In this document: in pieces, positions 3,352 to 44,295 of the stretch
How the letters are laid out: each line of letters opens with the position of its first letter
How positions within the stretch are numbered: the first letter of the stretch is position 1
NCBI GenBank assembly: GCA_965248445.1
Contig: CBDFJG010000004.1
Span: 640,001 to 704,000 of the forward strand
DNA: 64,000 nucleotides
Source of the DNA: Planctomycetota bacterium
Lineage (GTDB): Bacteria; Planctomycetota; JAJSAM01; JAJVHW01
Direction of reading: 5' to 3'
The notes under the pieces: model-generated
The model's database searches: none
What the model was told of the DNA's origin: nothing
What the model saw: the letters and a program-made list of their open reading frames with translations, nothing else
Translations under genes and position numbers: made by a program

Positions 3352-6012
3352 TCATCGCAGCGCGAGCACATCCATGCCGAGGACGGAGACGCCGCCGCCG
3401 TCGCGATCGCGGGAACCGCCGGTCCAGACCGCGCTCCAGAACACGCGCAGAGCCGCCTTCTGACCTCGCTTGCGCTCGAACGGCGCAAGCAGGTCGATCT
3501 CCCGCTTCTCCTTGTCCAGGCGCTCCACGGCGAACGGGCAGCGGGTGAACGGCTCGCCGCTCACGGGGTCGACCAGTATTCCGCGGATCGTCTCCGGGTC
3601 GATGCCGGTGCCCCGGTACTTCAAGCGGACCCGTGCGATGAGGGGACGCCCCGCGGCGAGCGAGTTGGTGTTCAGGGACGCCTGGGCCATGCCGTGAGGG
3701 TGGTTCGGTCCGAACTCGGTCTTCACCTTCCCCGGCCACGGGTGCGAGACGATCTCGAGTGTCTCGCGGTCCAGTTCGCGCGACCGTGCAGGCGGCACAT
3801 CCAGGAGCGCGCCGAGGGCGCGCGCCTCGTGCGTCACATCGCGGTCGGTCGCGCCTGCCAGCGTCCGCCAGAGGTGCGGCCTCGCCGACATGATCTCGTA
3901 CTCGCCGAGCCATCTCGCACACGTCGCGTGCAGTTCCGGCGGTGCCGACGCTGGAGCGTACCGCGTGAGCAGCTCGTCCCGTTGCTTCGTGCTCATGAGG
4001 ACCAGGCTCGCCAGCGCGAAGCCGCGTAGTCCGGCGTTCGCGTCCTCGTCGGCCACGAACAGTTCGAGGCGCGGCAGGGCGCGAGGTTCGCCGAGCCGCG
4101 CGACGTGCGTGAGCGCGTGGAGACGGATCGGCTCGTCGAACGGGTCATCGCCGATGTCGCGCCAACGGTACTCGTCCTCTTCGTCGGGCTTCGGCGGCGG
4201 ACGATTGTCGAGCGCGTCGCCCAGCCATCCGTAGAGGGCGATTTCCGAGAGCACTCTGTGCCATCTTGCGAAGCGAGGCAGCCGCGATTCGACGGGCAGC
4301 CCCGCTATGCCGATGTCCGCCGCTTCGCCGCGGACGCTGATCGAGCGGTGTCCGGTGGCGATGATCTGGAGCCCCGGCTGCATGTCGGGGCGGTGCATCC
4401 CTTCCGGGCTGAGGTGCCACGCCAGCGACTCGAACGCACGGCCGACGTCACGGGTCATGCTGTCCCAGGCCTCGGGATACCGGCCGCCGCGCTGCGCGAA
4501 GATCTCGGCGGTCCACGCCGCGGTGGTGTCTCCGGGACCGGCGGCAGGAACGACGACCCGCGAGTCGCACCGCAGGTACGCATCACGGAATACGCGGTAC
4601 CGCTGGCCGCGCGACTCCAGCGCCCGGCGGAACAGGTGCTCCCCCGCCGCCCGGCGTGCCGCGGCCGGGCGGGTGTAGATCTCCGGCCACGTCTGGAGTC
4701 GCGGGGCCTTGGTCGGGAACCTCGCGACTTCGAAGACCGTCACGTTGTCGATCTCGAGGTCGCATCGGCCCGTCCACCTCACGCGCAACTCGGTCTTCGC
4801 GTCGGCGAGGTTCTCGAACCCGAGGAACACGTCGCTCCATTCGCCGTCGGTGACGTCGCGCGCCAATACAGTGCGCGTCGAGGCGATCGACAGCCCCTTG
4901 TTGTGGCACACGTCGACCACGAGCATCGGCCCCTCGTCAATGATCCCCGTGCAACGCACGCGGTAGCGGGCAAGGAACCGCCCCTCCGGGATGTCGTCGG
5001 TGTACGGCCCGTAGAGAACGTGGCCGGCGCCGTGATCAGACCGGGTTGCGCGCCACGCGTTCTCCGTCGCTACACCGGCGGTGTGCCCCGCGTCCTTGTG
5101 CTCTGCCTCGTAGACGAAGACGCTCTTCGTCATGCGTGTGAGAGCCGCATCGAACTGCTCGGGATCGATCCGGCGCGCGGCCTCCAGCCGTCTCGCGCGG
5201 CCCCACGCGTCCTCCGAGCGCCCGGGTCCGACCGCTGTCTCCCGTCGCAGCAAATACGGGGTGAATTCAGCACCTCGAAGATGCCCCTCGAAGCTCGGTC
5301 CGGCGGCCTCACCCGCCGCCACACGAAGCCACGGGTCCGCCTCCTCCCCAAGCAGACGCACGAGTTCGCGCGCGAGTTCGACGCGCTGGTTGACCTGCAC
5401 CGTCTCGTCGAGAATCAGCTCGCCGAGCAAAGGGATCACTGCGCGGTCGCCGAGCCGCCCAAGTGCCAGCAGTGCGTGGAGGCGATGTGGCTCGATCAGT
5501 CGGCCACGCCAGCCGGACTCGGGGACGTACCGCCCCGCGCCGTCCCAGCCGAGAGCGGCCCAGAGGAACAGGAGATGCGGCCACCGATTGGACTCCGGCA
5601 GCTTCGCGACGTCGACCCGCTTGCGACCGACCAGGCCATCGTGCCGGGGGACTGACGGCCGCGCGCCGCAGAGGTCCTGCACGGCGGCGTGCCACGCGGC
5701 ATCGAGCGGCGTCGCGGCATCGCCGGCGTCCATGCGTTCGAGCAGCCCCTGCGCGACACGCCGCGGGAGCTCCTCCGGATCCTTCGCCCGGCTCGACAAC
5801 TCGGCACGCGCAACGTCACCGAGAGCGAAAAAGTCCTCCCGCAAAACAACGTGGTCGCGGCCGGGCGTCGTGAGCACGATGTCTGCCAGCACGACCGTTG
5901 CGTCGTCGCCGTCTCCGGCGGCAGCGAGCGCCGGCAGCAACGCCAGCGCCCCGCACAGCAGGCTGCTTCTGACCCTGGACACGTCCGCTCTGGCTCCCTC
6001 GCGCCTCTGCAT
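3352..6012 (-). CDS. Large secreted hypothetical protein with HEAT-like helices and a central carbohydrate-binding-like beta domain
   Basis: 886-aa ORF with a signal peptide (LCGALALLPALAAA), helical repeats and a 'HVLYGPYT..IPEGRF.ARYRV' beta module. Confidence 0.65.
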   Translation of the reverse strand: MQRREGARADVSRVRSSLLCGALALLPALAAAGDGDDATVVLADIVLTTPGRDHVVLREDFFALGDVARAELSSRAKDPEELPRRVAQGLLERMDAGDAATPLDAAWHAAVQDLCGARPSVPRHDGLVGRKRVDVAKLPESNRWPHLLFLWAALGWDGAGRYVPESGWRGRLIEPHRLHALLALGRLGDRAVIPLLGELILDETVQVNQRVELARELVRLLGEEADPWLRVAAGEAAGPSFEGHLRGAEFTPYLLRRETAVGPGRSEDAWGRARRLEAARRIDPEQFDAALTRMTKSVFVYEAEHKDAGHTAGVATENAWRATRSDHGAGHVLYGPYTDDIPEGRFLARYRVRCTGIIDEGPMLVVDVCHNKGLSIASTRTVLARDVTDGEWSDVFLGFENLADAKTELRVRWTGRCDLEIDNVTVFEVARFPTKAPRLQTWPEIYTRPAAARRAAGEHLFRRALESRGQRYRVFRDAYLRCDSRVVVPAAGPGDTTAAWTAEIFAQRGGRYPEAWDSMTRDVGRAFESLAWHLSPEGMHRPDMQPGLQIIATGHRSISVRGEAADIGIAGLPVESRLPRFARWHRVLSEIALYGWLGDALDNRPPPKPDEEDEYRWRDIGDDPFDEPIRLHALTHVARLGEPRALPRLELFVADEDANAGLRGFALASLVLMSTKQRDELLTRYAPASAPPELHATCARWLGEYEIMSARPHLWRTLAGATDRDVTHEARALGALLDVPPARSRELDRETLEIVSHPWPGKVKTEFGPNHPHGMAQASLNTNSLAAGRPLIARVRLKYRGTGIDPETIRGILVDPVSGEPFTRCPFAVERLDKEKREIDLLAPFERKRGQKAALRVFWSAVWTGGSRDRDGGGVSVLGMDVLALR

Positions 6013-6074
6013 CGTACCCGCACGGGTGGAACGCGAGCGTCACACGCACGCAACGGGCGAGGGGACGATGGGCT

Positions 6075-8222
6075 TCAGCGGCGCAGGAGCACAGCGCGGG
6101 CGCGGCGACGGTTGCGCTTGATGGCGTACGCGAGCGGGAGTGTCGCCTCGACGGCGGAGTCGTCGATGAGCACGAACACGGTGGCCTCGCGATAGTCCCG
6201 GCGCGGCTGGGCGTCGGGAGTCAGGTCCTCGTCGGCGAGCGAGGCCGCGAGATCCTGCTTCCGGAGCACCAGTTCGAGACGCGCGTCCTGCGCCGGAACG
6301 ATGCCCTTGCTCTTCTTGACGACGAGTCGCACCTTCGAAGATCCGTCGGCGCCCTTGCCTTTGGCGTCGAGCGTGAACGTGCGCACGACGCCGCCGAGAT
6401 AGACGGACAGAGTCCGGCCGGCCGGATCGAAGCCCTCCGGCACCGCGACGAGTGCGCGGAGTGCGGCCTTGTCGCGGCTGCTCTTGGCGAAGTTGAGCGC
6501 GATGCGGGCGCTGCCCGGAACGAGTGTTCCCGTCCCACCGCTCGCGGGTCGCGATCCGCCGTCGTCGAGCTCGGTCCCGAGAGCGATCTCGAGATCGTCC
6601 GGATAGACGTCCGCGTCGGAGTCGATCTTGGCGAATCCGGCACGCGGGCTCGGCTCCACAGACACGGTTACATCGGCGGCGGCCGACTGCCCGACGTCGT
6701 CGAACACGGTGTACGTGAACGCATCCTCTCCGACGAAGTCGCGCGCCGGCCGGTAGTTCACCGTTCCGTCCTCCAGCACGGACGCGCGGCCGTGCAACGG
6801 CGCGGTGGTCACCTTCACGGTGACGAGCCGGTCCGTCGCGCCGGCGTCGTTCGCCAGGACGTCGATCGTGAGCGACGAGTCCTCAGGTAGCACCCGGAAG
6901 TCGGCGACCGGCGTGATCACGGACGCTTCGGCGGTCAGCGCGATCTCCAGCGTGTAGAGCTGCACCCGGTTCGAACCGTCGCCGCGTACACGGACGGTGT
7001 ACGTGCCCGCGCCCTGCAGGAGTCCGACGTCGAACAGCGACTCGGCGCCACCGGCGGGAGTCGTGTCCGAAGATGCGAGCACGGTGCTGCCATCCGTTCC
7101 GAGCAGCGACATGCGCAAGTCGACACGCGTCAGCGCATTGAACACCTGGCTGGGTCCGCAGCCGCTATTCGACTGCGCGCCGTCGGCGTACGAGCTTCCG
7201 ACGGGCGTCAACACGATGTCCGCGCGCGTCCCGGCGGGAGCCTCGAACGAGTAGTAATCCTGGTCATCGCCGTCGTCGATGCTGACGAGGCGCACGGTGC
7301 GCGTCTCGGCATCCGCCGCGCCGAGTGGCGTCGCCCCGCCCACCGAGTCGTTCGGTTCGTGCGTATCGCCATACAGACGCTGGGCCGCGAGGATGTCGTC
7401 GAGCTGCGGTCCGTCGAACGCACTACCCGTGACCGGTTCCATCAGCTTGGTGCCGTTGACCGGACAGACGTGCCCAAAACCGAGGCCGTGACCGGACTCA
7501 TGGGCGACGGTGTTCCGTAGTCGAAGCGAGTTGCTCGACGTGACGTTGTAGTAGCGGTCCGCCGTGTCGATGACCATGTCGCTCGCGTTCGGGAAGAAGT
7601 TGTACGCGAGCGTCCCGCCGTTGCCGTCGATGCGGTGACCACCGATGCGCACGTCGGCGCGTGTACCGCGGATGCCCGCACGGAAGCCGAGGGGGACGGC
7701 GTCATCGGCCGGCTCGTAGACGTACTTGATGCCGCTGACCTCAGACCACCTCTCGAAGATCTTCTCGAACAGCGCCATCCACGCGCTCTCGCTGCCGTAA
7801 ATCCCGGTGAGGAACGCGCGCAGGTTGCTCGGAGCGGATCCCTCACCGCTGAAGCTGTCGATCATCGTGCCGTCGGGCACGATGCCCCACGTCAGTGTGG
7901 TCTTGTCGCCCTGGCTCAGCCCCGTGCCGTTCGTGGCGGTGGTGCTCCAGCGGGCGCCGTCTGCCGCTTGGTATTGCGCAATCGCCGGGCCCTCCGCGAT
8001 AGCGCACTCGACGGACTCGCGGTAGGAGTCCGGCGTGCCCGGGGCGAAGCAGACCGCAATCGGAAGCCGCGCCGGAGCCGCCTCTGCCTGAGCCACTGCC
8101 TGAACCGCCCGGGCCGGTGCCACCGAGTCTCGGGCCCCGTGGGCCGACACGCTCAGGACCACCGCCGCCACGAGGGCGGTCAGGCGATGGCTGCGTGCTC
8201 GCCGCGAGGGCCGACTCCGCAT
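6075..8222 (-). CDS. Matrixin-family (M10) zinc metalloprotease with PPC and Ig-like domains
   Basis: HESGHGLGFGH zinc motif, Met-turn TKLMEP, GTLAYNFFP. PPC-like DDQDYYSF and Ig-like 'IDVLAND...NYRPARDFVGEDAFTYTV' domains. Start codon uncertain. Confidence 0.85.
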   Translation of the reverse strand: MRSRPSRRARSHRLTALVAAVVLSVSAHGARDSVAPARAVQAVAQAEAAPARLPIAVCFAPGTPDSYRESVECAIAEGPAIAQYQAADGARWSTTATNGTGLSQGDKTTLTWGIVPDGTMIDSFSGEGSAPSNLRAFLTGIYGSESAWMALFEKIFERWSEVSGIKYVYEPADDAVPLGFRAGIRGTRADVRIGGHRIDGNGGTLAYNFFPNASDMVIDTADRYYNVTSSNSLRLRNTVAHESGHGLGFGHVCPVNGTKLMEPVTGSAFDGPQLDDILAAQRLYGDTHEPNDSVGGATPLGAADAETRTVRLVSIDDGDDQDYYSFEAPAGTRADIVLTPVGSSYADGAQSNSGCGPSQVFNALTRVDLRMSLLGTDGSTVLASSDTTPAGGAESLFDVGLLQGAGTYTVRVRGDGSNRVQLYTLEIALTAEASVITPVADFRVLPEDSSLTIDVLANDAGATDRLVTVKVTTAPLHGRASVLEDGTVNYRPARDFVGEDAFTYTVFDDVGQSAAADVTVSVEPSPRAGFAKIDSDADVYPDDLEIALGTELDDGGSRPASGGTGTLVPGSARIALNFAKSSRDKAALRALVAVPEGFDPAGRTLSVYLGGVVRTFTLDAKGKGADGSSKVRLVVKKSKGIVPAQDARLELVLRKQDLAASLADEDLTPDAQPRRDYREATVFVLIDDSAVEATLPLAYAIKRNRRRARAVLLRR

Positions 8223-37183: not shown

Positions 37184-40100
37184 GTGGACATGCACGAGAG
37201 TGACAGCGCTTCAGGCTCGGCGTACGTTCGGCATCCGACCATCCGCGGAGACCGCATCGCGTTCTCGGCCGAGGGTGACCTGTGGGAGGCGGACGCCGGC
37301 GGCGGCGACGCGCGGCGGATGACGAGCAGCGCAGCGGTCTGCTCGTTCCCCCGCTACTCCCCCGACGGAAAGTACATCGCGTTCAGTTCGGCAGACGAAG
37401 GACCGCCCGCGGTGTGGGTCATGCCGGCAGGCGGAGGGCCCGCGCGGCGGCTCACGTTCCACGCGACCCCGGACCAAGTGGTGGGCTGGTCGCTCGATTC
37501 GGAGCACGTGGTCTTCCGCACGCTCTCCGTGGTGGGTATCCGCGCGTTCACGCTGGCGCGCGTTCCTGTCGGCGGCGGCGCCGTGGAGGGTCTGTCCTAC
37601 GGCCGCGGCACCGGTATCGCGTATCACGCCGACGGCGACCGCGTCGCGCTGCACCGCCACGGCGGAGATCCCGCGTGGTGGAAGCGTTACGCCGGCGGCC
37701 GCGCAGGGCGCCTCTGGATCGGTCGTCACTCGACGGGCGAGTTCGAACCAGTCCCCGGCGGACCGCGCACCGACGCGTGTCCGATGTGGATCGGCGACCA
37801 GTTGTGGTTCCTCTCCGATCAGGACGGGATGGGCGACATCTGGTGCGCCGATGCCGACGGTAGCCACCGGCGGCGGGTCACGTCGCACGACGCGTACTTT
37901 GCGCGCCACCCCGAGCAGGATGCCGGACGCATCGTGTACTCGATGGGCGGCCGCCTCATGCTCCTCGACACGAACGAGATCAACCCGGAGCCGCGCGAGA
38001 TCCCGGTCAGCGCACGCGGGCACTCCGTCACGTCGCGCCGCAAGTTCGTCTCGGCCGCAGACGGCGTCGAATCGCACGCTCTCTCGTTCGCGGGTTCGAC
38101 TGCCCTGTTCAGCATTCGCGGCCGCGTCGCAGCGCTTCCCTGCTGGGGTGGCGCCGCTCGCATCATCGCCGCCCCGGACGGCGTTCGATTCCGATGCGCA
38201 CGTCCACTCGGCAACACCGGCCGGTTCGCGGCGATCGCGCAGTGGGACGAGAACAGTCATGTCGTCCTCATTCCCGAGGACGGCATCGGCAACGACATGT
38301 CGCGAGCCACGGATCTCGGCCACGTCGGGCGCCGGATCCGCGCGATCGAGGTCAGCCCGGACGGAAAGCGGATCGCGGTGCTGGATCAAGGCCGTGGCGT
38401 CCATGTGATGACGCTGTCGGAGGACGGTTCGTCGGCCGAGACCGTGATGGTCGACGACGACGGCCAGTCATGGGTGCGCCGTGCCGCGTGGTCGCCGTGC
38501 GGAACCTGGCTCGCGTACGCGCGGCAGTTGACGTGGTGGTCCAGCCACCTGTTTCTCTGGAACGTCGTGACCGGCGAGCGGACACCGCTCAGCACGGGCG
38601 AATTCTCCGACGCGGCGCCGGACTGGGATCCTGCCGGGCGCTTCCTGGCGTTCCTCTCGGCCCGTGAACTCGATCCCGTGTACAGCGCCGTGCAGCACGA
38701 CTTCGAGTTCGTCGCCCCGACGCGCGCGTACGCCATCGCCTTGCGCAAAGGCGAGCGACTGCCGTTCGCGGCAGAAGCGGAGCTCCCGCCGAAGGAAGTC
38801 GAGCCCGTCACCGAGCCCCTCGCCGTCGATCTCGACGGCATACAGGATCGCGTCGCGGTGCTCCCCTTCAAGCCGGGCAACCTCACGCAGGTGCTCTGCG
38901 CGACGAGCGGTGTGGGCGTGGTGCGCTATCCGACGGTCGGCGCGCACGCGAGCGAGGACGAGCAGCACGCGGGGCCGAACGCGAAGCCGGCGAAGCTCGA
39001 GATCCTCGACCACCGCGAACGCGAGGTGCAGACGGCCGTGGACGGCATGAGCGGCGCCTCCGCGTCCGGGGACGCCAAACGCTGGATCGTCCGCGCGGGC
39101 AAGCGCTTCCGCGTGATCGACGCCGCCAAATCGAGGGAGGAGAACCCGTTCAAGAAGAAGAAAGACACGTCGACCCCGTCGTCGGGGTGGCTCGACCTCG
39201 GGCGCGTCCGCTTCCACGTGACCCCACGCGCCGAGTTCGGACAGATCCTGCGCGAGGCGTGGTCGCTGCAGCGGGATCACTTCTACGATGAGGGTCTCGT
39301 CAGCGTCGACTGGGACGCGTGCCTCGAACGCTACTCCGCCCTGCTTCCGCGCATTCGCACGCGCGAGGAGTTGATCGATCTCCTGTGGGAGATGCAGGGC
39401 GAACTCGGCACGTCGCACGCCTATGCGTTCGGAGGCGACGTTCCGGCCGAGAAGCAGTACTCGCCGGGCCTCCTGGGCTGCGACTTCGCCCAGGACGGGA
39501 CCACCGGCGCCTATCGGATCGACCGCATCTACCGCGGTGACCCTTGGCAGGAGAAGCAGCACTCCCCGCTCGCCGCGGCCGGTGTTGAAGTCTCCGAGGG
39601 CGACTGGCTCCTCGCCGTCGACGGACTCCCCGTCGGGCGCGAGACCCACCCAGGTGAACGACTCCTCGAACGGGCGGGCAGATCCGTTGTGTTGCGCCTT
39701 GCGGCGTCTGCCGACGGCGCGGACGCGCGTGACGTGACGGTCACCCCGACGCGCGACGAGACGCTCTTGCGATATCGCGCGTGGGTCGACGACAACGAGC
39801 GCCGGGTCAGCGAGGCGAGCGACGGTCGCGTCGGCTACATCCACATCCCGAACATGGGGCCGTGGGGCGCCACGGAGTTCCACCGCACGTTCCTCTGGCA
39901 GGTGATCCAGAAGCGCGCGCTGGTCGTGGACGCTCGCTACAACGGCGGCGGCAACATCTCCGCCATTCTGCTGGCGAAGCTGATGCGCCCGATCATCGGG
40001 TGGACGTTCACCCGCTACGGCGGTGCGCGGACGTACCCCTCCCACGCGCCGCTCGGCCCGATCGTCGTGCTCACGAACGAGAACGCTGGGAGCGACGGCG

Positions 40101-40438
40101 ACATCTTCTCCCAGGCCGTGAAGTCGGTCTCGCTCGGTCCACTGATCGGCATGCGCACCTGGGGCGGCGTGGTCGGCATCGACATGGCGAAGACGCTGGT
40201 CGACGGTGGTCAGACCTCCCAGCCGGAGTACGCGTTCTGGTTCCCCGGCGTCGGGTGGAGCGTGGAGAACCACGGAGTCGAACCGGACATCGAAGTCGAC
40301 CTGACACCGGCCGATGCGTTGCGGGGCGCTGACCCGCAGCTCGACCGCGCGATTCACGAGGTCCTGACCCGCCTGGAGGCTACGCCGCCGGTACCTCCCG
40401 ATCCGGGTCCGCTGCCCAATCTGCGCCACCCGGCGTGA
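37184..40438 (+). CDS. Tricorn protease (peptidase S41) with PD40 propellers and a PDZ domain
   Basis: WWKRYAGG, GELGTSHAY, VGYIHIPNM, DARYNGGG, catalytic AGSDGD, RTWGG, VENHGVEPD. Start may be ATG 37190. Confidence 0.95.
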   Translation: MDMHESDSASGSAYVRHPTIRGDRIAFSAEGDLWEADAGGGDARRMTSSAAVCSFPRYSPDGKYIAFSSADEGPPAVWVMPAGGGPARRLTFHATPDQVVGWSLDSEHVVFRTLSVVGIRAFTLARVPVGGGAVEGLSYGRGTGIAYHADGDRVALHRHGGDPAWWKRYAGGRAGRLWIGRHSTGEFEPVPGGPRTDACPMWIGDQLWFLSDQDGMGDIWCADADGSHRRRVTSHDAYFARHPEQDAGRIVYSMGGRLMLLDTNEINPEPREIPVSARGHSVTSRRKFVSAADGVESHALSFAGSTALFSIRGRVAALPCWGGAARIIAAPDGVRFRCARPLGNTGRFAAIAQWDENSHVVLIPEDGIGNDMSRATDLGHVGRRIRAIEVSPDGKRIAVLDQGRGVHVMTLSEDGSSAETVMVDDDGQSWVRRAAWSPCGTWLAYARQLTWWSSHLFLWNVVTGERTPLSTGEFSDAAPDWDPAGRFLAFLSARELDPVYSAVQHDFEFVAPTRAYAIALRKGERLPFAAEAELPPKEVEPVTEPLAVDLDGIQDRVAVLPFKPGNLTQVLCATSGVGVVRYPTVGAHASEDEQHAGPNAKPAKLEILDHREREVQTAVDGMSGASASGDAKRWIVRAGKRFRVIDAAKSREENPFKKKKDTSTPSSGWLDLGRVRFHVTPRAEFGQILREAWSLQRDHFYDEGLVSVDWDACLERYSALLPRIRTREELIDLLWEMQGELGTSHAYAFGGDVPAEKQYSPGLLGCDFAQDGTTGAYRIDRIYRGDPWQEKQHSPLAAAGVEVSEGDWLLAVDGLPVGRETHPGERLLERAGRSVVLRLAASADGADARDVTVTPTRDETLLRYRAWVDDNERRVSEASDGRVGYIHIPNMGPWGATEFHRTFLWQVIQKRALVVDARYNGGGNISAILLAKLMRPIIGWTFTRYGGARTYPSHAPLGPIVVLTNENAGSDGDIFSQAVKSVSLGPLIGMRTWGGVVGIDMAKTLVDGGQTSQPEYAFWFPGVGWSVENHGVEPDIEVDLTPADALRGADPQLDRAIHEVLTRLEATPPVPPDPGPLPNLRHPA

Positions 40439-40510
40439 GCCCAATTGCGTGATAGAGTTCATGGGTTCGGACGGGTTGCCCTGACCCGCCGACCGGACCG
40501 GGAGGCCCTC

Positions 40511-41350
40511 ATGCGCACGCGTCACTTCTTCGTCCTCGGAGCGCTCGCGCTCGCACTGACCACGTTCAACTCCACGTCCGCCGAAGCGGGTTGATGCCCT
40601 CGCGGAGGAGGTGTCGCCGGCGGCGGCATGAGCGCGGGCGCGGGAATCGGCGGCGGCGGATTCGGCGGAGCTGCTGCATCCGGTGTGGCCGGCGAGGGCA
40701 CGACCACCGGCATCGTCTGGATCGAGGCGGCGCTCACCGCGCCGGCCGCGATCACCGGTGAGGCCGCTACGAAGGAAACGCTCGAGCAACACCTGCACAA
40801 GATCCTCGAGTCGAGCGAGTGGGACCCCAAGCCGACGTTGCTCTACTTCCATCACGAGCACGACGTCGACGAGGAGGAGGGCGAGAAGCTCACAGCGCAG
40901 GGCAAGCTGAGCCTCAAGCAGTGCAAGTCGCTCGACGACGAGAAGGTCGCGCGCTGGAGCCAGCTCTACAAGTTCGTCGAGGTGAACGTGCCGACGAGCG
41001 AGAACGAACTGCTCGCACGCTTCAAGGCAGGCAACGGGCCGTCGTTCACGATCATCAACCAGGACCTCGAAGTGAAGGCGTCGAGCGGCACCCTCGGCAA
41101 TTCGAAGGGCGTCGTCTCGTTCCTGCAGTCGACGGTGAAGAAGCACTTCCCGGACTACTGGAAGCAGGTCCAGGACCGGCTCGACCTGCAGAAGAAGGCG
41201 CTCAAGGACGCGCGCTCGCTCGAGAAGTCCAAGAAGTACGACGAGGCGCTGGACCGCGTTCGCGAAGTCACGGGTTCGCAACTCCGCATCGGACCGCAGT
41301 ACGACGACGCCGTCAAACTGGGAGCCAAGATCCGCAAGAAGCTCGACTAG
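40511..41350 (+). CDS. Putative exported selenoprotein: signal peptide, G-U-C-P, Gly-rich linker, thioredoxin-like domain, helical tail (279 aa)
   Basis: GGAGG 5 nt before ATG 40511. MRTRHFFVLGALALALTTFNSTSAEAG-TGA(40592-40594)-CPRGGGVAGGG is in frame with ORF 40628-41350 (GIVW..KPTLLYFH..YKFVEVNV..GPSFTII). Confidence 0.7.
40598..40638 (+). promoter_or_regulatory. Putative bacterial SECIS element
   Basis: Upper stem gtgtcgcc/ggcggcat (40611-40629, two GU pairs) with a G-starting loop ggc 24 nt after the UGA. Lower stem ccctcgc/gcgcggg with one mismatch. Confidence 0.5.
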
Positions 41351-41352
41351 AG

Positions 41353-42447
41353 CTAGCGGCCGCGGATCCGGCGCAGCGCGTATCGGGTGCGCAGGAACAA
41401 CGTGAGGCGGTGCTCCTTCGGGAGCATCGCCTCCGTGCGTTCCAGGAATGCGCGCACGGCGGGCCGATGGGCCTCCCGATCGCCGCGCGTCCATGCCCTC
41501 GCGCAGGCAACACGCTGCCGGTACCACGCCAGCCGACCCGACCGCTGGGGGCGGATCGATCCGCTGTCCACGATCTGGAACGCCGTGCCGTCGTAGATGA
41601 GGTTGTCCGCGTTCAAGCCGCTCACGAACGTGTGCGCCTTCACGAGCTTCGCAAGCAGACCTGCCAGAGCGAGAGCCCGCGGATCGTCGGCACGGACGAG
41701 AGACTCGTCGTCCTCCCGCAGCAGCATGCCGAGCGACGACCCCGCAACGTACGGCTGCAAGATCGTACGGCCGTCCGGCGCCCACGCCGCCACGGCGCTC
41801 GAGACGCCGAGACGTCCCCACTCGAGCGAGCGGCGCACCTGGGACTCCAGGTCCCGCCGCGTGCGCGGCCCGTCGTCGGCCGGGATCTTCCACGCGAACT
41901 CGGCGCCGTCGGAACTCCGACGAACGCGCGCGACGCGCGACGTCTTGCCGGACCCGAGGCGCAGGTCCACGAGTTCGTAACCCGCGGGCACTGCCGGAGT
42001 GACCGAATCGAGCAGGCTCTGCATCTCGCCCGCATCGCACGCGTCCACGAGACGCAGCCACGCCGCGCGCTCGGCGTACGAACTCAGCGTGAGGGCGTGG
42101 TAGAGCAGATCGAAGATCGGCGCTTCGCCGTGCAGATCGACGAACACGAAACGGTGCAGGTGCGCGCGCAGTTCATCGTCGGCGTGGCCCACCACCGCGC
42201 GCAACAGCGGCGCCGAGCGCCGTACGTCCGGACGGCGGAGCAGTGTTTTCGCGAGCGTCGCAGCCCCCTCGGCACCCGTCCGGTCCAGCGACGCGGCGAG
42301 CGTCGCTTGCATGGCGGCGGCATCCTCGCCGCGGAGTCCGGCGGCCACCTGATCAACAGCCGCCTCACTGTCGACGCCACGTAGCCGGGCGAGCAGCGCG
42401 ATCGGTCCAGCGCCCGCAATCCCTCCGGAGTCGTTCGTCGCTGTCAC
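41353..42447 (-). CDS. Protein kinase-like fold protein (possible pseudokinase)
   Basis: LGSGKTSRV Gly loop, AWKI lysine, LQPYVAG, GLNADN catalytic loop, IVDSG. Confidence 0.6.
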   Translation of the reverse strand: MTATNDSGGIAGAGPIALLARLRGVDSEAAVDQVAAGLRGEDAAAMQATLAASLDRTGAEGAATLAKTLLRRPDVRRSAPLLRAVVGHADDELRAHLHRFVFVDLHGEAPIFDLLYHALTLSSYAERAAWLRLVDACDAGEMQSLLDSVTPAVPAGYELVDLRLGSGKTSRVARVRRSSDGAEFAWKIPADDGPRTRRDLESQVRRSLEWGRLGVSSAVAAWAPDGRTILQPYVAGSSLGMLLREDDESLVRADDPRALALAGLLAKLVKAHTFVSGLNADNLIYDGTAFQIVDSGSIRPQRSGRLAWYRQRVACARAWTRGDREAHRPAVRAFLERTEAMLPKEHRLTLFLRTRYALRRIRGR

Positions 42448-42795: not shown

Positions 42796-44295
42796 GTAAC
42801 CGTTCACCCCTTGACAGCGTGTGAGCCTCAGCGTGCGACGGGCAGCGGGACCATGACGGGCGGGTCGGCGCCGGTGAGGTGCGCGGCGACCGAGTCGGCG
42901 AGGAAGTCGAAGACTTGGTCGCCACGGCGTCGCAGCGTGGCCGCGGCGGTCAACACGCGCTCGGCGAAGCGGAGTCCGCGAGCGGACTGGCTTCCGAAGG
43001 AGCCCTTGCGCCAGAGCACCGCTTTGCGGACCGCGCGCTCGGCGGCGTTGTTCGTCGGACTCACGTCCTGGGTCCGCGCATAGGTGAAGAGGGCGACCAC
43101 GCGGGGGCGCAGATGGTTGGCCAGAGCCGAGTCGTCGTTCGCGATCAGTCGCTCGAGCCGTCCGCGCAGCACAGCGGCTTCGCCTTGCAGCCGGTCACGG
43201 TCGCCGTGCTCACCGAAGAGCCGGTAGCTGCGCATGACCGACTGCGCGATCATGACGCCCTTGTTGCCGAAGCGGCGATGTCCTCGCGGGCCTTCGGCCA
43301 GCGCACGGAAGGCGCGCTCGATGTGCGCCCAGCAGAGCTGGCGGCGGGCAAGTGGGTGTGACTCGTAGGCACCCATCCGGTCGCTGATCACCGTGCCACC
43401 GAAGCGCCGCCCGATCAGCCGCCCTTTCGCCTTGGCACTGCGGCGGCGATCGATCCCGAAGGCTGTGGCGTGCTCGCTCTCCGCCGCCCACAGCCAGCAC
43501 ACCCGGCCCCGTTCCTTCCACGACGTCTCGTCCACGTTGGCTCGCAGCGACGTGCGGACTGCCCCGAGGGCTTCGAGGTACGACGAGTGCAGAGCGTCAC
43601 TGAGCCGACGCTCACAGTCGCTGATCTTGCCCAGCGACATCTTCACACCGAAGATCTCACCGAGCAGCCGCTGCGTCTCCCGCACGCTCACGCGGTACAC
43701 GCCGCGCAGCGCGCCGGCAAGTGTGGTCAGCCGCGGACCGAAGGCCCCGGTCGGCACGCCATCGGGCAGGACCGCCGTCGTGACCGCACGACAGCGCCGG
43801 CACCGCGCCTTGTGCAGCCGGTGCTCCCGCACCGTGACGAGCACGCGCGGGAGCACCGTCACCTGGTGCCGGTACGGATCGCCGATGCCCTGCTCGAGAT
43901 CGTCGTGTCCGCACGCGTCGCAGAGGTCGGGACGGTGCTCCTTGGTCTCATCGACGTTGGACGGATCCACCAGCTCGCGCGCCGTGCCCTCATGGCCCGG
44001 CTGTCCGCCCTGCTTGCGACCGCTACGCGGCCTTCGGCCGCGACGGCGCTTGGACCACGCCGGGTCCGACGACGGAGGCCTCGAGCTGTTGCGGGAGTCA
44101 CGCTTCAGACGCGACTCGAGCTCGTCGATGCGGCGCAGATGCTTCGCTTCGCGACGCTCCAGCTCCTCGATCCAGGCCAGAAGGCCCTCGACCATCGCCC
44201 GCAGATCCTCGTCCTGCCGCTCGCCCACAACCTCTTGATCGACCGATGGCCGAACGATCTGGATCCTGGCTCGCGACGAAGGGGTGAACGGTTAC
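42796..44295 (-). mobile_element. IS66-family insertion sequence (single ORF, ISBst12-like group), 1500 bp
   Basis: Perfect 17-bp terminal inverted repeats GTAACCGTTCACCCCTT (42796-42812) and AAGGGGTGAACGGTTAC (44279-44295) around an IS66 transposase. No target duplication seen. Confidence 0.92.
42828..44228 (-). CDS. IS66 family transposase
   Basis: Leucine zipper, NSSRPPSSD, GGQPGHEG, CxxC zinc motifs, VDETSW, ISDR, QLCWAH, PTNNAAERAVR. Confidence 0.95.
   Translation of the reverse strand: MGERQDEDLRAMVEGLLAWIEELERREAKHLRRIDELESRLKRDSRNSSRPPSSDPAWSKRRRGRRPRSGRKQGGQPGHEGTARELVDPSNVDETKEHRPDLCDACGHDDLEQGIGDPYRHQVTVLPRVLVTVREHRLHKARCRRCRAVTTAVLPDGVPTGAFGPRLTTLAGALRGVYRVSVRETQRLLGEIFGVKMSLGKISDCERRLSDALHSSYLEALGAVRTSLRANVDETSWKERGRVCWLWAAESEHATAFGIDRRRSAKAKGRLIGRRFGGTVISDRMGAYESHPLARRQLCWAHIERAFRALAEGPRGHRRFGNKGVMIAQSVMRSYRLFGEHGDRDRLQGEAAVLRGRLERLIANDDSALANHLRPRVVALFTYARTQDVSPTNNAAERAVRKAVLWRKGSFGSQSARGLRFAERVLTAAATLRRRGDQVFDFLADSVAAHLTGADPPVMVPLPVAR

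Follow-up and report, generated by a model that had tools for sequence, protein, structure and literature searches.

A candidate family of exported selenoproteins in Planctomycetota with selenocysteine at the predicted mature N-terminus, next to a thioredoxin fold that lacks CxxC

Mammalian thioredoxin reductase carries a C-terminal G-C-U-G redox tail, in which adjacent cysteine (Cys) and selenocysteine (Sec, written U) residues, flanked by Gly, form a flexible terminal arm. Among prokaryotes, 119 selenoprotein families and subfamilies are collected in Table 1 of a 2026 review, in which the thioredoxin-fold entries bear Sec at the CxxC site of the fold, in UxxC-type motifs, and in which no entry has Sec after a leader and outside the fold (PMC13188914). 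The nearest catalogued motif is that of "hypothetical protein DG" (GUxG, NF049953 ribbon_DG_selen), described from Desulfosediminicola (PMC12013277), and Table S9 of PMC4807772 includes one "hypothetical" planctomycete selenoprotein candidate that could belong to the family reported here. Here, we describe a gene at positions 40511–41350 of a 64,000-nucleotide stretch of the genome of a Planctomycetota bacterium (assembly GCA_965248445.1, contig CBDFJG010000004.1, positions 640,001 to 704,000; this whole stretch is referred to as the window), together with its relatives in the phylum. Taken as a whole, the segment is best explained, with a probability of about 0.65, as a single gene whose product is an exported selenoprotein bearing a mobile selenenylsulfide or diselenide arm at its N-terminus. 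Considered separately, the decoding of the UGA as Sec within a single protein is very likely, and a redox role for the arm, as opposed to any other, has about even odds. The explanation stands on a conserved UGA, the Sec/Cys pair among homologs, a class of hairpins downstream of the UGA, the Sec machinery of the genome and the fold of the protein.

In common with the thioredoxin reductase tail, the protein has adjacent Cys and Sec on a flexible, Gly-flanked terminal arm, and three relatives (L028, L035 and L037; loci and proteins are denoted here by L and P numbers) carry exactly G-C-U-G. Unlike that tail, the arm is N-terminal and would be exposed by leader removal in an exported bacterial protein; the protein lacks a flavoprotein domain in Pfam searches, and its putative Sec insertion sequence (SECIS) lies inside the coding region. 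This likeness may point to a way of working, not to family membership. With the thioredoxin-fold (UxxC; UGC-containing TlpA family) and C-U/U-C selenoproteins listed in the catalogue, the family shares SelB/SECIS-dependent Sec in or beside a thioredoxin fold and closely spaced Sec and Cys residues; the difference is that its Sec is not part of the fold and instead sits at the predicted N-terminus of the mature protein. A preliminary description of the window, made from the letters alone, had not recognized this layout among bacterial selenoprotein families, and no catalogue checked has it (Table 1 of PMC13188914; NCBIfam). The NF049953 model matched nothing in the window's genome, the control genomes likewise being without a hit, and full-text literature searches found no description of the family, with the families of Haft & Tolstoy 2025 compared only indirectly, via NCBIfam. 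The family is thus absent from the catalogues checked and joins a known SelB/SECIS mechanism and a known fold to Sec in a new position, namely, a predicted mature N-terminus, tethered and often doubled.

Translation from ATG 40511 yields the leader MRTRHFFVLGALALALTTFNSTSAEAG, followed by GGT TGA TGC CCT, and the frame passes the TGA without a shift into a 240-residue open reading frame (ORF; 40628–41350), the start of which under translation table 11 is ATG 40628 (coordinates of the features are collected in Table 1). The preliminary description had proposed exactly this read-through, and the observations on which it rested are borne out: GGAGG is located 5 nt before ATG 40511, the TGA at 40592 is in frame with the 240-residue ORF, and a hairpin with a G-starting loop (GGC, closed by 8 perfect pairs) lies 24 nt past the UGA. 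ATG 40628, which falls within the 3' arm of this hairpin, indeed lacks a well-spaced ribosome-binding site, the closest GGAGG-like run ending about 16 nt upstream. The statement that the sequence before the TGA resembles a signal peptide likewise holds, and relatives keep such a leader, as judged by simple residue counts.

The family survey covered Planctomycetota genomes; whole-database protein searches added 6 close proteins and 51 cluster representatives, without taxonomy. Within the same taxonomic family, a six-frame search produced matches in 7 of 8 genomes, with one in-frame TGA in five other genera, and in a sample of the phylum, a profile search produced matches in 43 of 401 genomes, with 1 or 2 in-frame TGAs in 38 of 52 places. 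In a search of genome contigs for related loci, a narrow alignment gave 2 loci and a single-protein query gave none. Among the 45 family genes translated, 42 have Sec after the leader, the first Sec or Cys comes 23–34 residues past the start codon, and two Sec/Cys residues are spaced by at most 6 residues in 41. The G-U-C form of the window gene is the most frequent (21/45), followed by C-U (8/45, with G-C-U-G in the three loci named above and Q-C-U-G in five) and U-G-U (TGA-GGC-TGA; 7/45, in another family of the phylum). Two genes have U-GGGG-C, and C-GGGG-U (L068), U-U (L020), U-x-x-U (L067), a single U (L021) and a single C (L019) occur in one gene each; one gene has no Sec or Cys at the N-terminal site (L018), and in one, the form was not readable (first gene of L039). 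Relatives therefore keep the UGA, or in two forms a Cys, at the same place after the leader, as the preliminary description had anticipated. The vicinal Sec-Cys dyad that it had put forward is present in the window, but the adjoining Cys is not universal. What stays constant in these translations is a Sec where the mature protein is predicted to begin, almost invariably accompanied by another Sec or Cys no more than 6 residues away.

Leaders were assessed in 40 N-termini by simple counts (K/R, uncharged run, distance to Sec/Cys). An uncharged run of at least 12 residues is present in 39 of these, the start codon is ATG in 37, K or R appears among the first 8 residues in 36, and a motif resembling a ribosome-binding site, searched with a lenient pattern, precedes the leader start in all 40. 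With the first gene of L039 as the sole exception, leader and domain lie in a common frame throughout the genes read; for independent ORFs, this would be expected by chance about one-third of the time. Signal-peptide cleavage follows the -3/-1 rule, by which the predicted site follows A-x-A before G-U-C and A-x-G before U-G-U, and precedes the Q in Q-C-U. The correspondence between Sec and Cys is visible within the window's own genome, where paralog L019 (P0011) is a continuous ORF reading ...A-P-S-C-G-G-G-G-G-R-V-V-V-V and paralog L021 reads ...P-P-T-U-P-G-H-G-S-V-V-V-T, with Sec at the position matching the L019 Cys. The other Cys form, P0022, reads ...S-A-E-A-C-T-G-A-G-G-G, compared to ...S-A-E-A-G-U-C-P-R-G-G-G in the window.

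Several loci differ in arrangement. The two paralogs are located on contig 3 (L019, 1483134–1484078) and contig 1 (L021, about 333771–334620). L020 (G006:C31, about 5278–6147) has two adjacent in-frame TGAs after the leader, giving G-G-U-U-A-G-G-G, and L067 (G338:C121) reads A-F-A-U-E-N-U-G-P-P, a U-x-x-U spacing unique among the genes read. Tandem pairs of family genes with differing N-terminal motifs were found at L049 (G312:C418), L059 (G292:C14) and L039/L068 (G276:C149); for example, U-GGGR-C stands beside G-U-C, and in L039/L068, only the motif of the second copy (C-GGGG-U) is readable.

The consensus for the bacterial SECIS (bSECIS), as given in PMC13188914, comprises a loop of 3–9 nt with G in the first two loop positions, an upper stem of 4–16 bp, a distance of 16–37 nt from the UGA and a minimum free energy (MFE) of -7.5 kcal/mol or lower. 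With its 8-bp stem, GGC loop and 24-nt spacing, the window element lies within the constraints of that source; its MFE of -24.4 kcal/mol is that of 40592–40640 as a whole, not of the upper stem-loop by itself. Across the family, the hairpin class examined was a perfect stem with a 3–6 nt loop beginning with GG, the loop starting +15 to +34 from the U of the UGA, in 28 Sec genes, that is, the Sec forms of loci L012–L049; L046 and L047, near-copies of L045, and the later loci L058–L069 stand outside this set. Perfect stems of at least 8 bp were observed in 10 of the 28 genes, compared to 0.46 in codon shuffles (maximum of 4 in 400) and 0.18 in the background of the same loci, and stems of at least 6 bp in 16, compared to 2.45 (maximum of 7) and 0.90, respectively. 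Hairpins of at least 5 bp closed by a GGUC tetraloop were found in 14/28 genes, compared to 0.36 in codon shuffles (maximum of 3 in 500). Thus, the class of perfect hairpins with GG loops is strongly enriched after the UGA relative to both codon shuffles and background. The GGUC loop is written GGT-CGC (Gly-Arg) in one set of genes and GGG-TCC (Gly-Ser) in another, and thus in two reading frames, suggesting that the RNA rather than the protein is what selection acts on. In 22 distinct loop-anchored hairpins, pairs 1–5 are canonical in 109 of 110 cells, with 3–6 pair types per position, and when the 3' arms were dealt to other sequences, pairing over pairs 1–8 fell from 0.86 to 0.56 (maximum of 0.67 in 1000 trials). 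These pairs were counted on coordinate-anchored arms; MAFFT alignments of the hairpins were rejected, with 4 sequences out of register. In L020 and in the seven U-G-U genes, two UGA codons would have to share one hairpin downstream.

The genome has the machinery for Sec insertion that the preliminary description had called for, all four genes scoring above the respective cut-offs: selA (502 bits), selB (336 bits; at 739119–741011 on contig 4, the contig of the window, and about 35 kb past the window's end), tRNA-Sec (selC, 68 bits versus a gathering score of 47) and selD (386 bits), which has an in-frame TGA of its own, reading G-G-G-U-A-C-K. Reassignment of TGA throughout the genome is excluded: the protease gene directly upstream of the selenoprotein gene ends in TGA (40436–40438), and the L013 ortholog of the window gene itself terminates in TGA. 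A miscalled TGA had also been considered; the segment 40450–40750 is identical in separately assembled contigs of four public runs, all from one sample of one study that is possibly the source of the assembly, and these run-level assemblies reproduce the TGA.

AlphaFold2, run with a 42-sequence alignment, produced a model with a mean predicted local distance difference test (pLDDT) score of 84 and values mostly above 90 for residues 61–279. It agrees with the preliminary description in showing a thioredoxin fold preceded by a disordered Gly-rich arm, and it also shows a helical tail. Model residues 67–210 adopt a thioredoxin fold, matching DsbD-gamma (1vrs_D) at Z = 11.8 with a root-mean-square deviation (rmsd) of 2.4 over 112 of 118 residues in VIA-align; many thioredoxins score at Z of about 11, and Foldseek assigns a probability of 1.00 to many thioredoxins. 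The claim that this domain has no CxxC of its own stands as well: at the start of helix 2, where CxxC or UxxC would be expected in the fold, the sequence is F-H-H-E-H, with a single Cys (C138) further on. Against DsbD-gamma and the thioredoxins (1vrs_D, 2fwe, 4ruv and 3f9u_B; Z of 11–11.8, rmsd of 2.1–2.5, 104–119 residues), the resemblance is thus one of fold, with only 13–17% identity in the structural alignments and with CxxC replaced by F-H-x-x-H and one Cys or, in the diverged subfamilies, by nothing. Sequence profiles detect none of this: the Pfam search of the protein gave two unrelated hits below the cut-off and no thioredoxin model, and hmmscan against NCBIfam gave 0 families. For the model as a whole, Foldseek ranks Escherichia coli YbbN first (3qou; E = 6.5e-4), a protein that likewise combines a CxxC-less thioredoxin-like domain with a helical C-terminal domain; the match is weak (TM-score of 0.33, rmsd of 9.7, 13% identity), and YbbN, a cytoplasmic protein, has neither leader nor Sec.

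The conserved residues of the domain divide the family. The core subfamily, consisting of the window's family with the window gene included, its sister family and two others, has F-H-x-x-H (H114 and H117) at the end of strand 2 and C138 in the next helix. In the diverged subfamilies, the equivalents of H114, H117 and C138 are all lost and the two-residue N-terminal Sec/Cys group is kept; C138 is retained wherever only one Sec or Cys stands at the N-terminus. Because the diverged subfamilies have lost the domain residues, the N-terminal group is the only candidate active site common to the Sec-bearing subfamilies, and this retention, along with the near-constant presence of the pair, supports the arm as the functional center.

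Accordingly worded as a model, SelB would read the UGA of codon 28 as Sec, guided by the stem-loop in the codons of the Gly-rich linker, and after export, the leader would be removed just before or at the Sec, such that the mature protein of the window would begin with G-U-C. The Sec-Cys pair would then be carried on a disordered tether of about 35 residues, joined to a DsbD-gamma/thioredoxin-like domain that appears to have lost its CxxC and then to the helical tail. The pair could cycle between selenolate/thiolate and selenenylsulfide, with a diselenide in the U-G-U and U-U relatives, and act as a mobile redox center outside the cytoplasm, much as the G-C-U-G tail does in thioredoxin reductase, while the folded part, the thioredoxin-like domain with its helical tail, would provide a docking site for a partner or client. 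More tentatively, and with less confidence than we place in redox activity as such, Sec might be mature residue 1 or 2 across the family, and a Sec-Cys, Cys-Sec, Sec-Gly-Sec or Sec-Sec group at the tip of a long disordered tether could form a swinging selenium arm in the planctomycete envelope. Such an arm would be either a diselenide/selenenylsulfide shuttle or a chelator to which the free amino terminus also contributes, and one stem-loop would serve both UGAs where these are adjacent (L020) or separated by one codon (U-G-U).

The main rival accepts the same exported selenoprotein and takes the arm to be a ligand for a metal or metalloid (for example, Cu, Hg, Ni, Zn or As), in which the amino terminus, selenolate and thiolate would form a chelate, with H114, H117 and C138 completing or receiving the site in the core subfamily. 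This alternative draws on the conservation of F-H-x-x-H and one Cys at the CxxC position in that subfamily, and on the adjacent C-U/U-C entries of the catalogue that are annotated as metal-related, namely, CopZ-type GxUC/CU, MbdU CU, MerB-like SaoL CU and HgcA CU (PMC13188914). We nevertheless regard it as unlikely, although well ahead of the other alternatives, given that the diverged subfamilies retain the arm without these His and Cys residues, that no transporter or resistance gene is a conserved neighbor among 30 flanking ORFs of 15 loci and that neither Pfam nor NCBIfam shows a match to a metal-binding family. A lipoprotein, with the Cys or Sec after the leader as the lipid-modified first residue and the Gly-rich stretch as the tether, would have just this order of leader, Cys, Gly-rich tether and folded domain, and yet none of the 40 N-termini, read by eye, fits the lipobox pattern. 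Counting back from the first Sec/Cys, position -1 is occupied by G, Q, N, S or T and position -2 often by W, F, Y, P or G; where A stands at -2, position -3 has E, D, Q or N. Moreover, the Cys of the G-U-C forms is preceded by Sec. On these grounds, lipidation is highly improbable.

Slightly less probable still is a TGA that acts as a true stop, leaving a 27-residue leader peptide and a separate cytoplasmic protein initiated at ATG 40628 or nearby. Such an arrangement matches the public gene calls of the locus and sits well with the lack of statistical distinction of the window hairpin when taken alone. It has to contend with the conservation of frame, leader and TGA in 42/45 genes across many families of the phylum and with the Cys forms, which are single continuous ORFs; furthermore, a downstream Met is not conserved, the linkers of L016 and L017 having none, and the Met present in the window is encoded in a hairpin arm and poorly placed for initiation. 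Finally, an error of assembly or sequencing at the TGA, or a fresh pseudogene, is effectively refuted, because the TGA recurs in independent assemblies of many genera, a stronger argument than the unchanged sequence in the contigs of the four runs, with their single and possibly shared origin.

Several observations weigh against reading 40511–41350 as an exported selenoprotein with a redox arm, or at least weaken the evidence for it. The preliminary description had looked to covariation in the region after the UGA; across the family, the stems vary yet stay paired, but the window hairpin by itself is not statistically distinctive, with a folding energy z of -1.09 versus dinucleotide shuffles, and the 60 nt past the UGA fold no better than codon-order shuffles in 28 genes (summed z = -0.5). 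Folding energy is uninformative here because Gly/Ala codons fold in whatever order they are placed. The anchored hairpins were hand-picked by the analyst, so that the pair counts lean towards structure, and many of the genes are close relatives. A perfect GG-loop hairpin of at least 5 bp is absent in 6 of the 28 genes (L020, L021, L044, L045, L048 and L049), in which only other or imperfect hairpins were found. As to the confinement of UGA forms to genomes with sel genes, a check also proposed there, a Sec form is present in 37 genomes, and selB scores above the cut-off in 33 of these; the four misses are assemblies that are 76, 82, 85 and 88% complete. This co-occurrence discriminates weakly because 282 of the 401 genomes sampled in the phylum carry selB. 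Only two Cys forms were found (L019/P0011 and P0022), such that Sec forms dominate, and kinship among the sampled genomes means that the counts do not come from independent samples. In the AlphaFold2 model, the arm is unplaced (pLDDT below 50 for residues 7–60), and among the flanking ORFs surveyed (30 ORFs, 15 loci), no neighbor gene that would hint at a function is conserved family-wide.

Table 1. Features of the selenoprotein gene in window coordinates, with the basis for each
Feature	Position	Strand	Basis or remark
Ribosome-binding site GGAGG	40501..40505	+	5 nt 5' of ATG 40511
Full selenoprotein gene (P0001)	40511..41350	+	279 residues with TGA translated as Sec; stop TAG 41348-41350
Signal-peptide-like leader, residues 1-27	40511..40591	+	Basic start, hydrophobic core, A-E-A then G; predicted cleavage site
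Sec codon TGA, U28 (codon 28)	40592..40594	+	Family-wide in-frame TGA; Cys in paralog L019
Cys codon TGC adjoining Sec, C29	40595..40597	+	Translation; G-U-C in 21/45 genes
SECIS-like stem-loop	40596..40639	+	Upper stem 40611-40618/40622-40629 (8 bp), loop GGC 40619-40621, flanking lower stem; folding and perfect-stem search
Gly/Ala-rich disordered linker, about residues 30-63	40598..40699	+	AlphaFold2 pLDDT <50 for residues 7-60; Gly-rich stretch in all relatives
Thioredoxin-fold domain without CxxC, about residues 64-210	40700..41140	+	pLDDT >90; VIA-align and Foldseek matches
H114-H115-E116-H117 codons, F-H-x-x-H motif at the CxxC place	40850..40861	+	H114/H117 invariant in A1, at least 90% conserved in A2
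C138 codon, sole conserved Cys of the domain	40922..40924	+	Invariant in A1, at least 90% conserved in A2
C-terminal helical region, about residues 214-278	41150..41347	+	Helices 214-239, 243-254 and 262-278 at high pLDDT

The gene directly upstream (37184–40438, forward strand) encodes a 1084-residue tricorn-type protease (Peptidase_S41, PDZ_Tricorn and Tricorn_C1 in Pfam). A protease gene of this type occupies the upstream position only in the three closest loci (L012–L014), and other loci have radical SAM, ClpC/McsB-like or glycine-cleavage T genes as neighbors. Downstream, a convergent 364-residue ORF (41353–42447, reverse strand) has a high G+C content at third codon positions and no Pfam match, and it is followed by an IS66-family transposase gene (42828–44228, reverse strand; DDE_Tnp_IS66, DUF6444 and a weak zf-IS66), 1.5 kb downstream of the selenoprotein gene.

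As the preliminary description had foreseen, gene callers truncate the product: all 6 close database entries begin after the TGA, as do most of the 51 cluster representatives, and the Sec paralog L021 is truncated in the same way by public gene calls (P0013). Because the callers cut at the UGA, the public proteins lack the leader as well as the one candidate active site that is conserved, and what is very likely an exported selenoprotein is annotated as a leaderless hypothetical protein. With the family added, the catalogue of prokaryotic selenoproteins would gain an entry found in about 9% of the genomes sampled from a phylum in which 70% carry selB. In the literature searched, we found no earlier description of Sec outside the fold at a mature N-terminus, including the two Sec residues adjacent or one residue apart seen in some relatives. 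An N-terminal Sec that occurs in nature on an accessible tether would be of interest for selenium redox chemistry, for envelope redox systems and for protein ligation chemistry.

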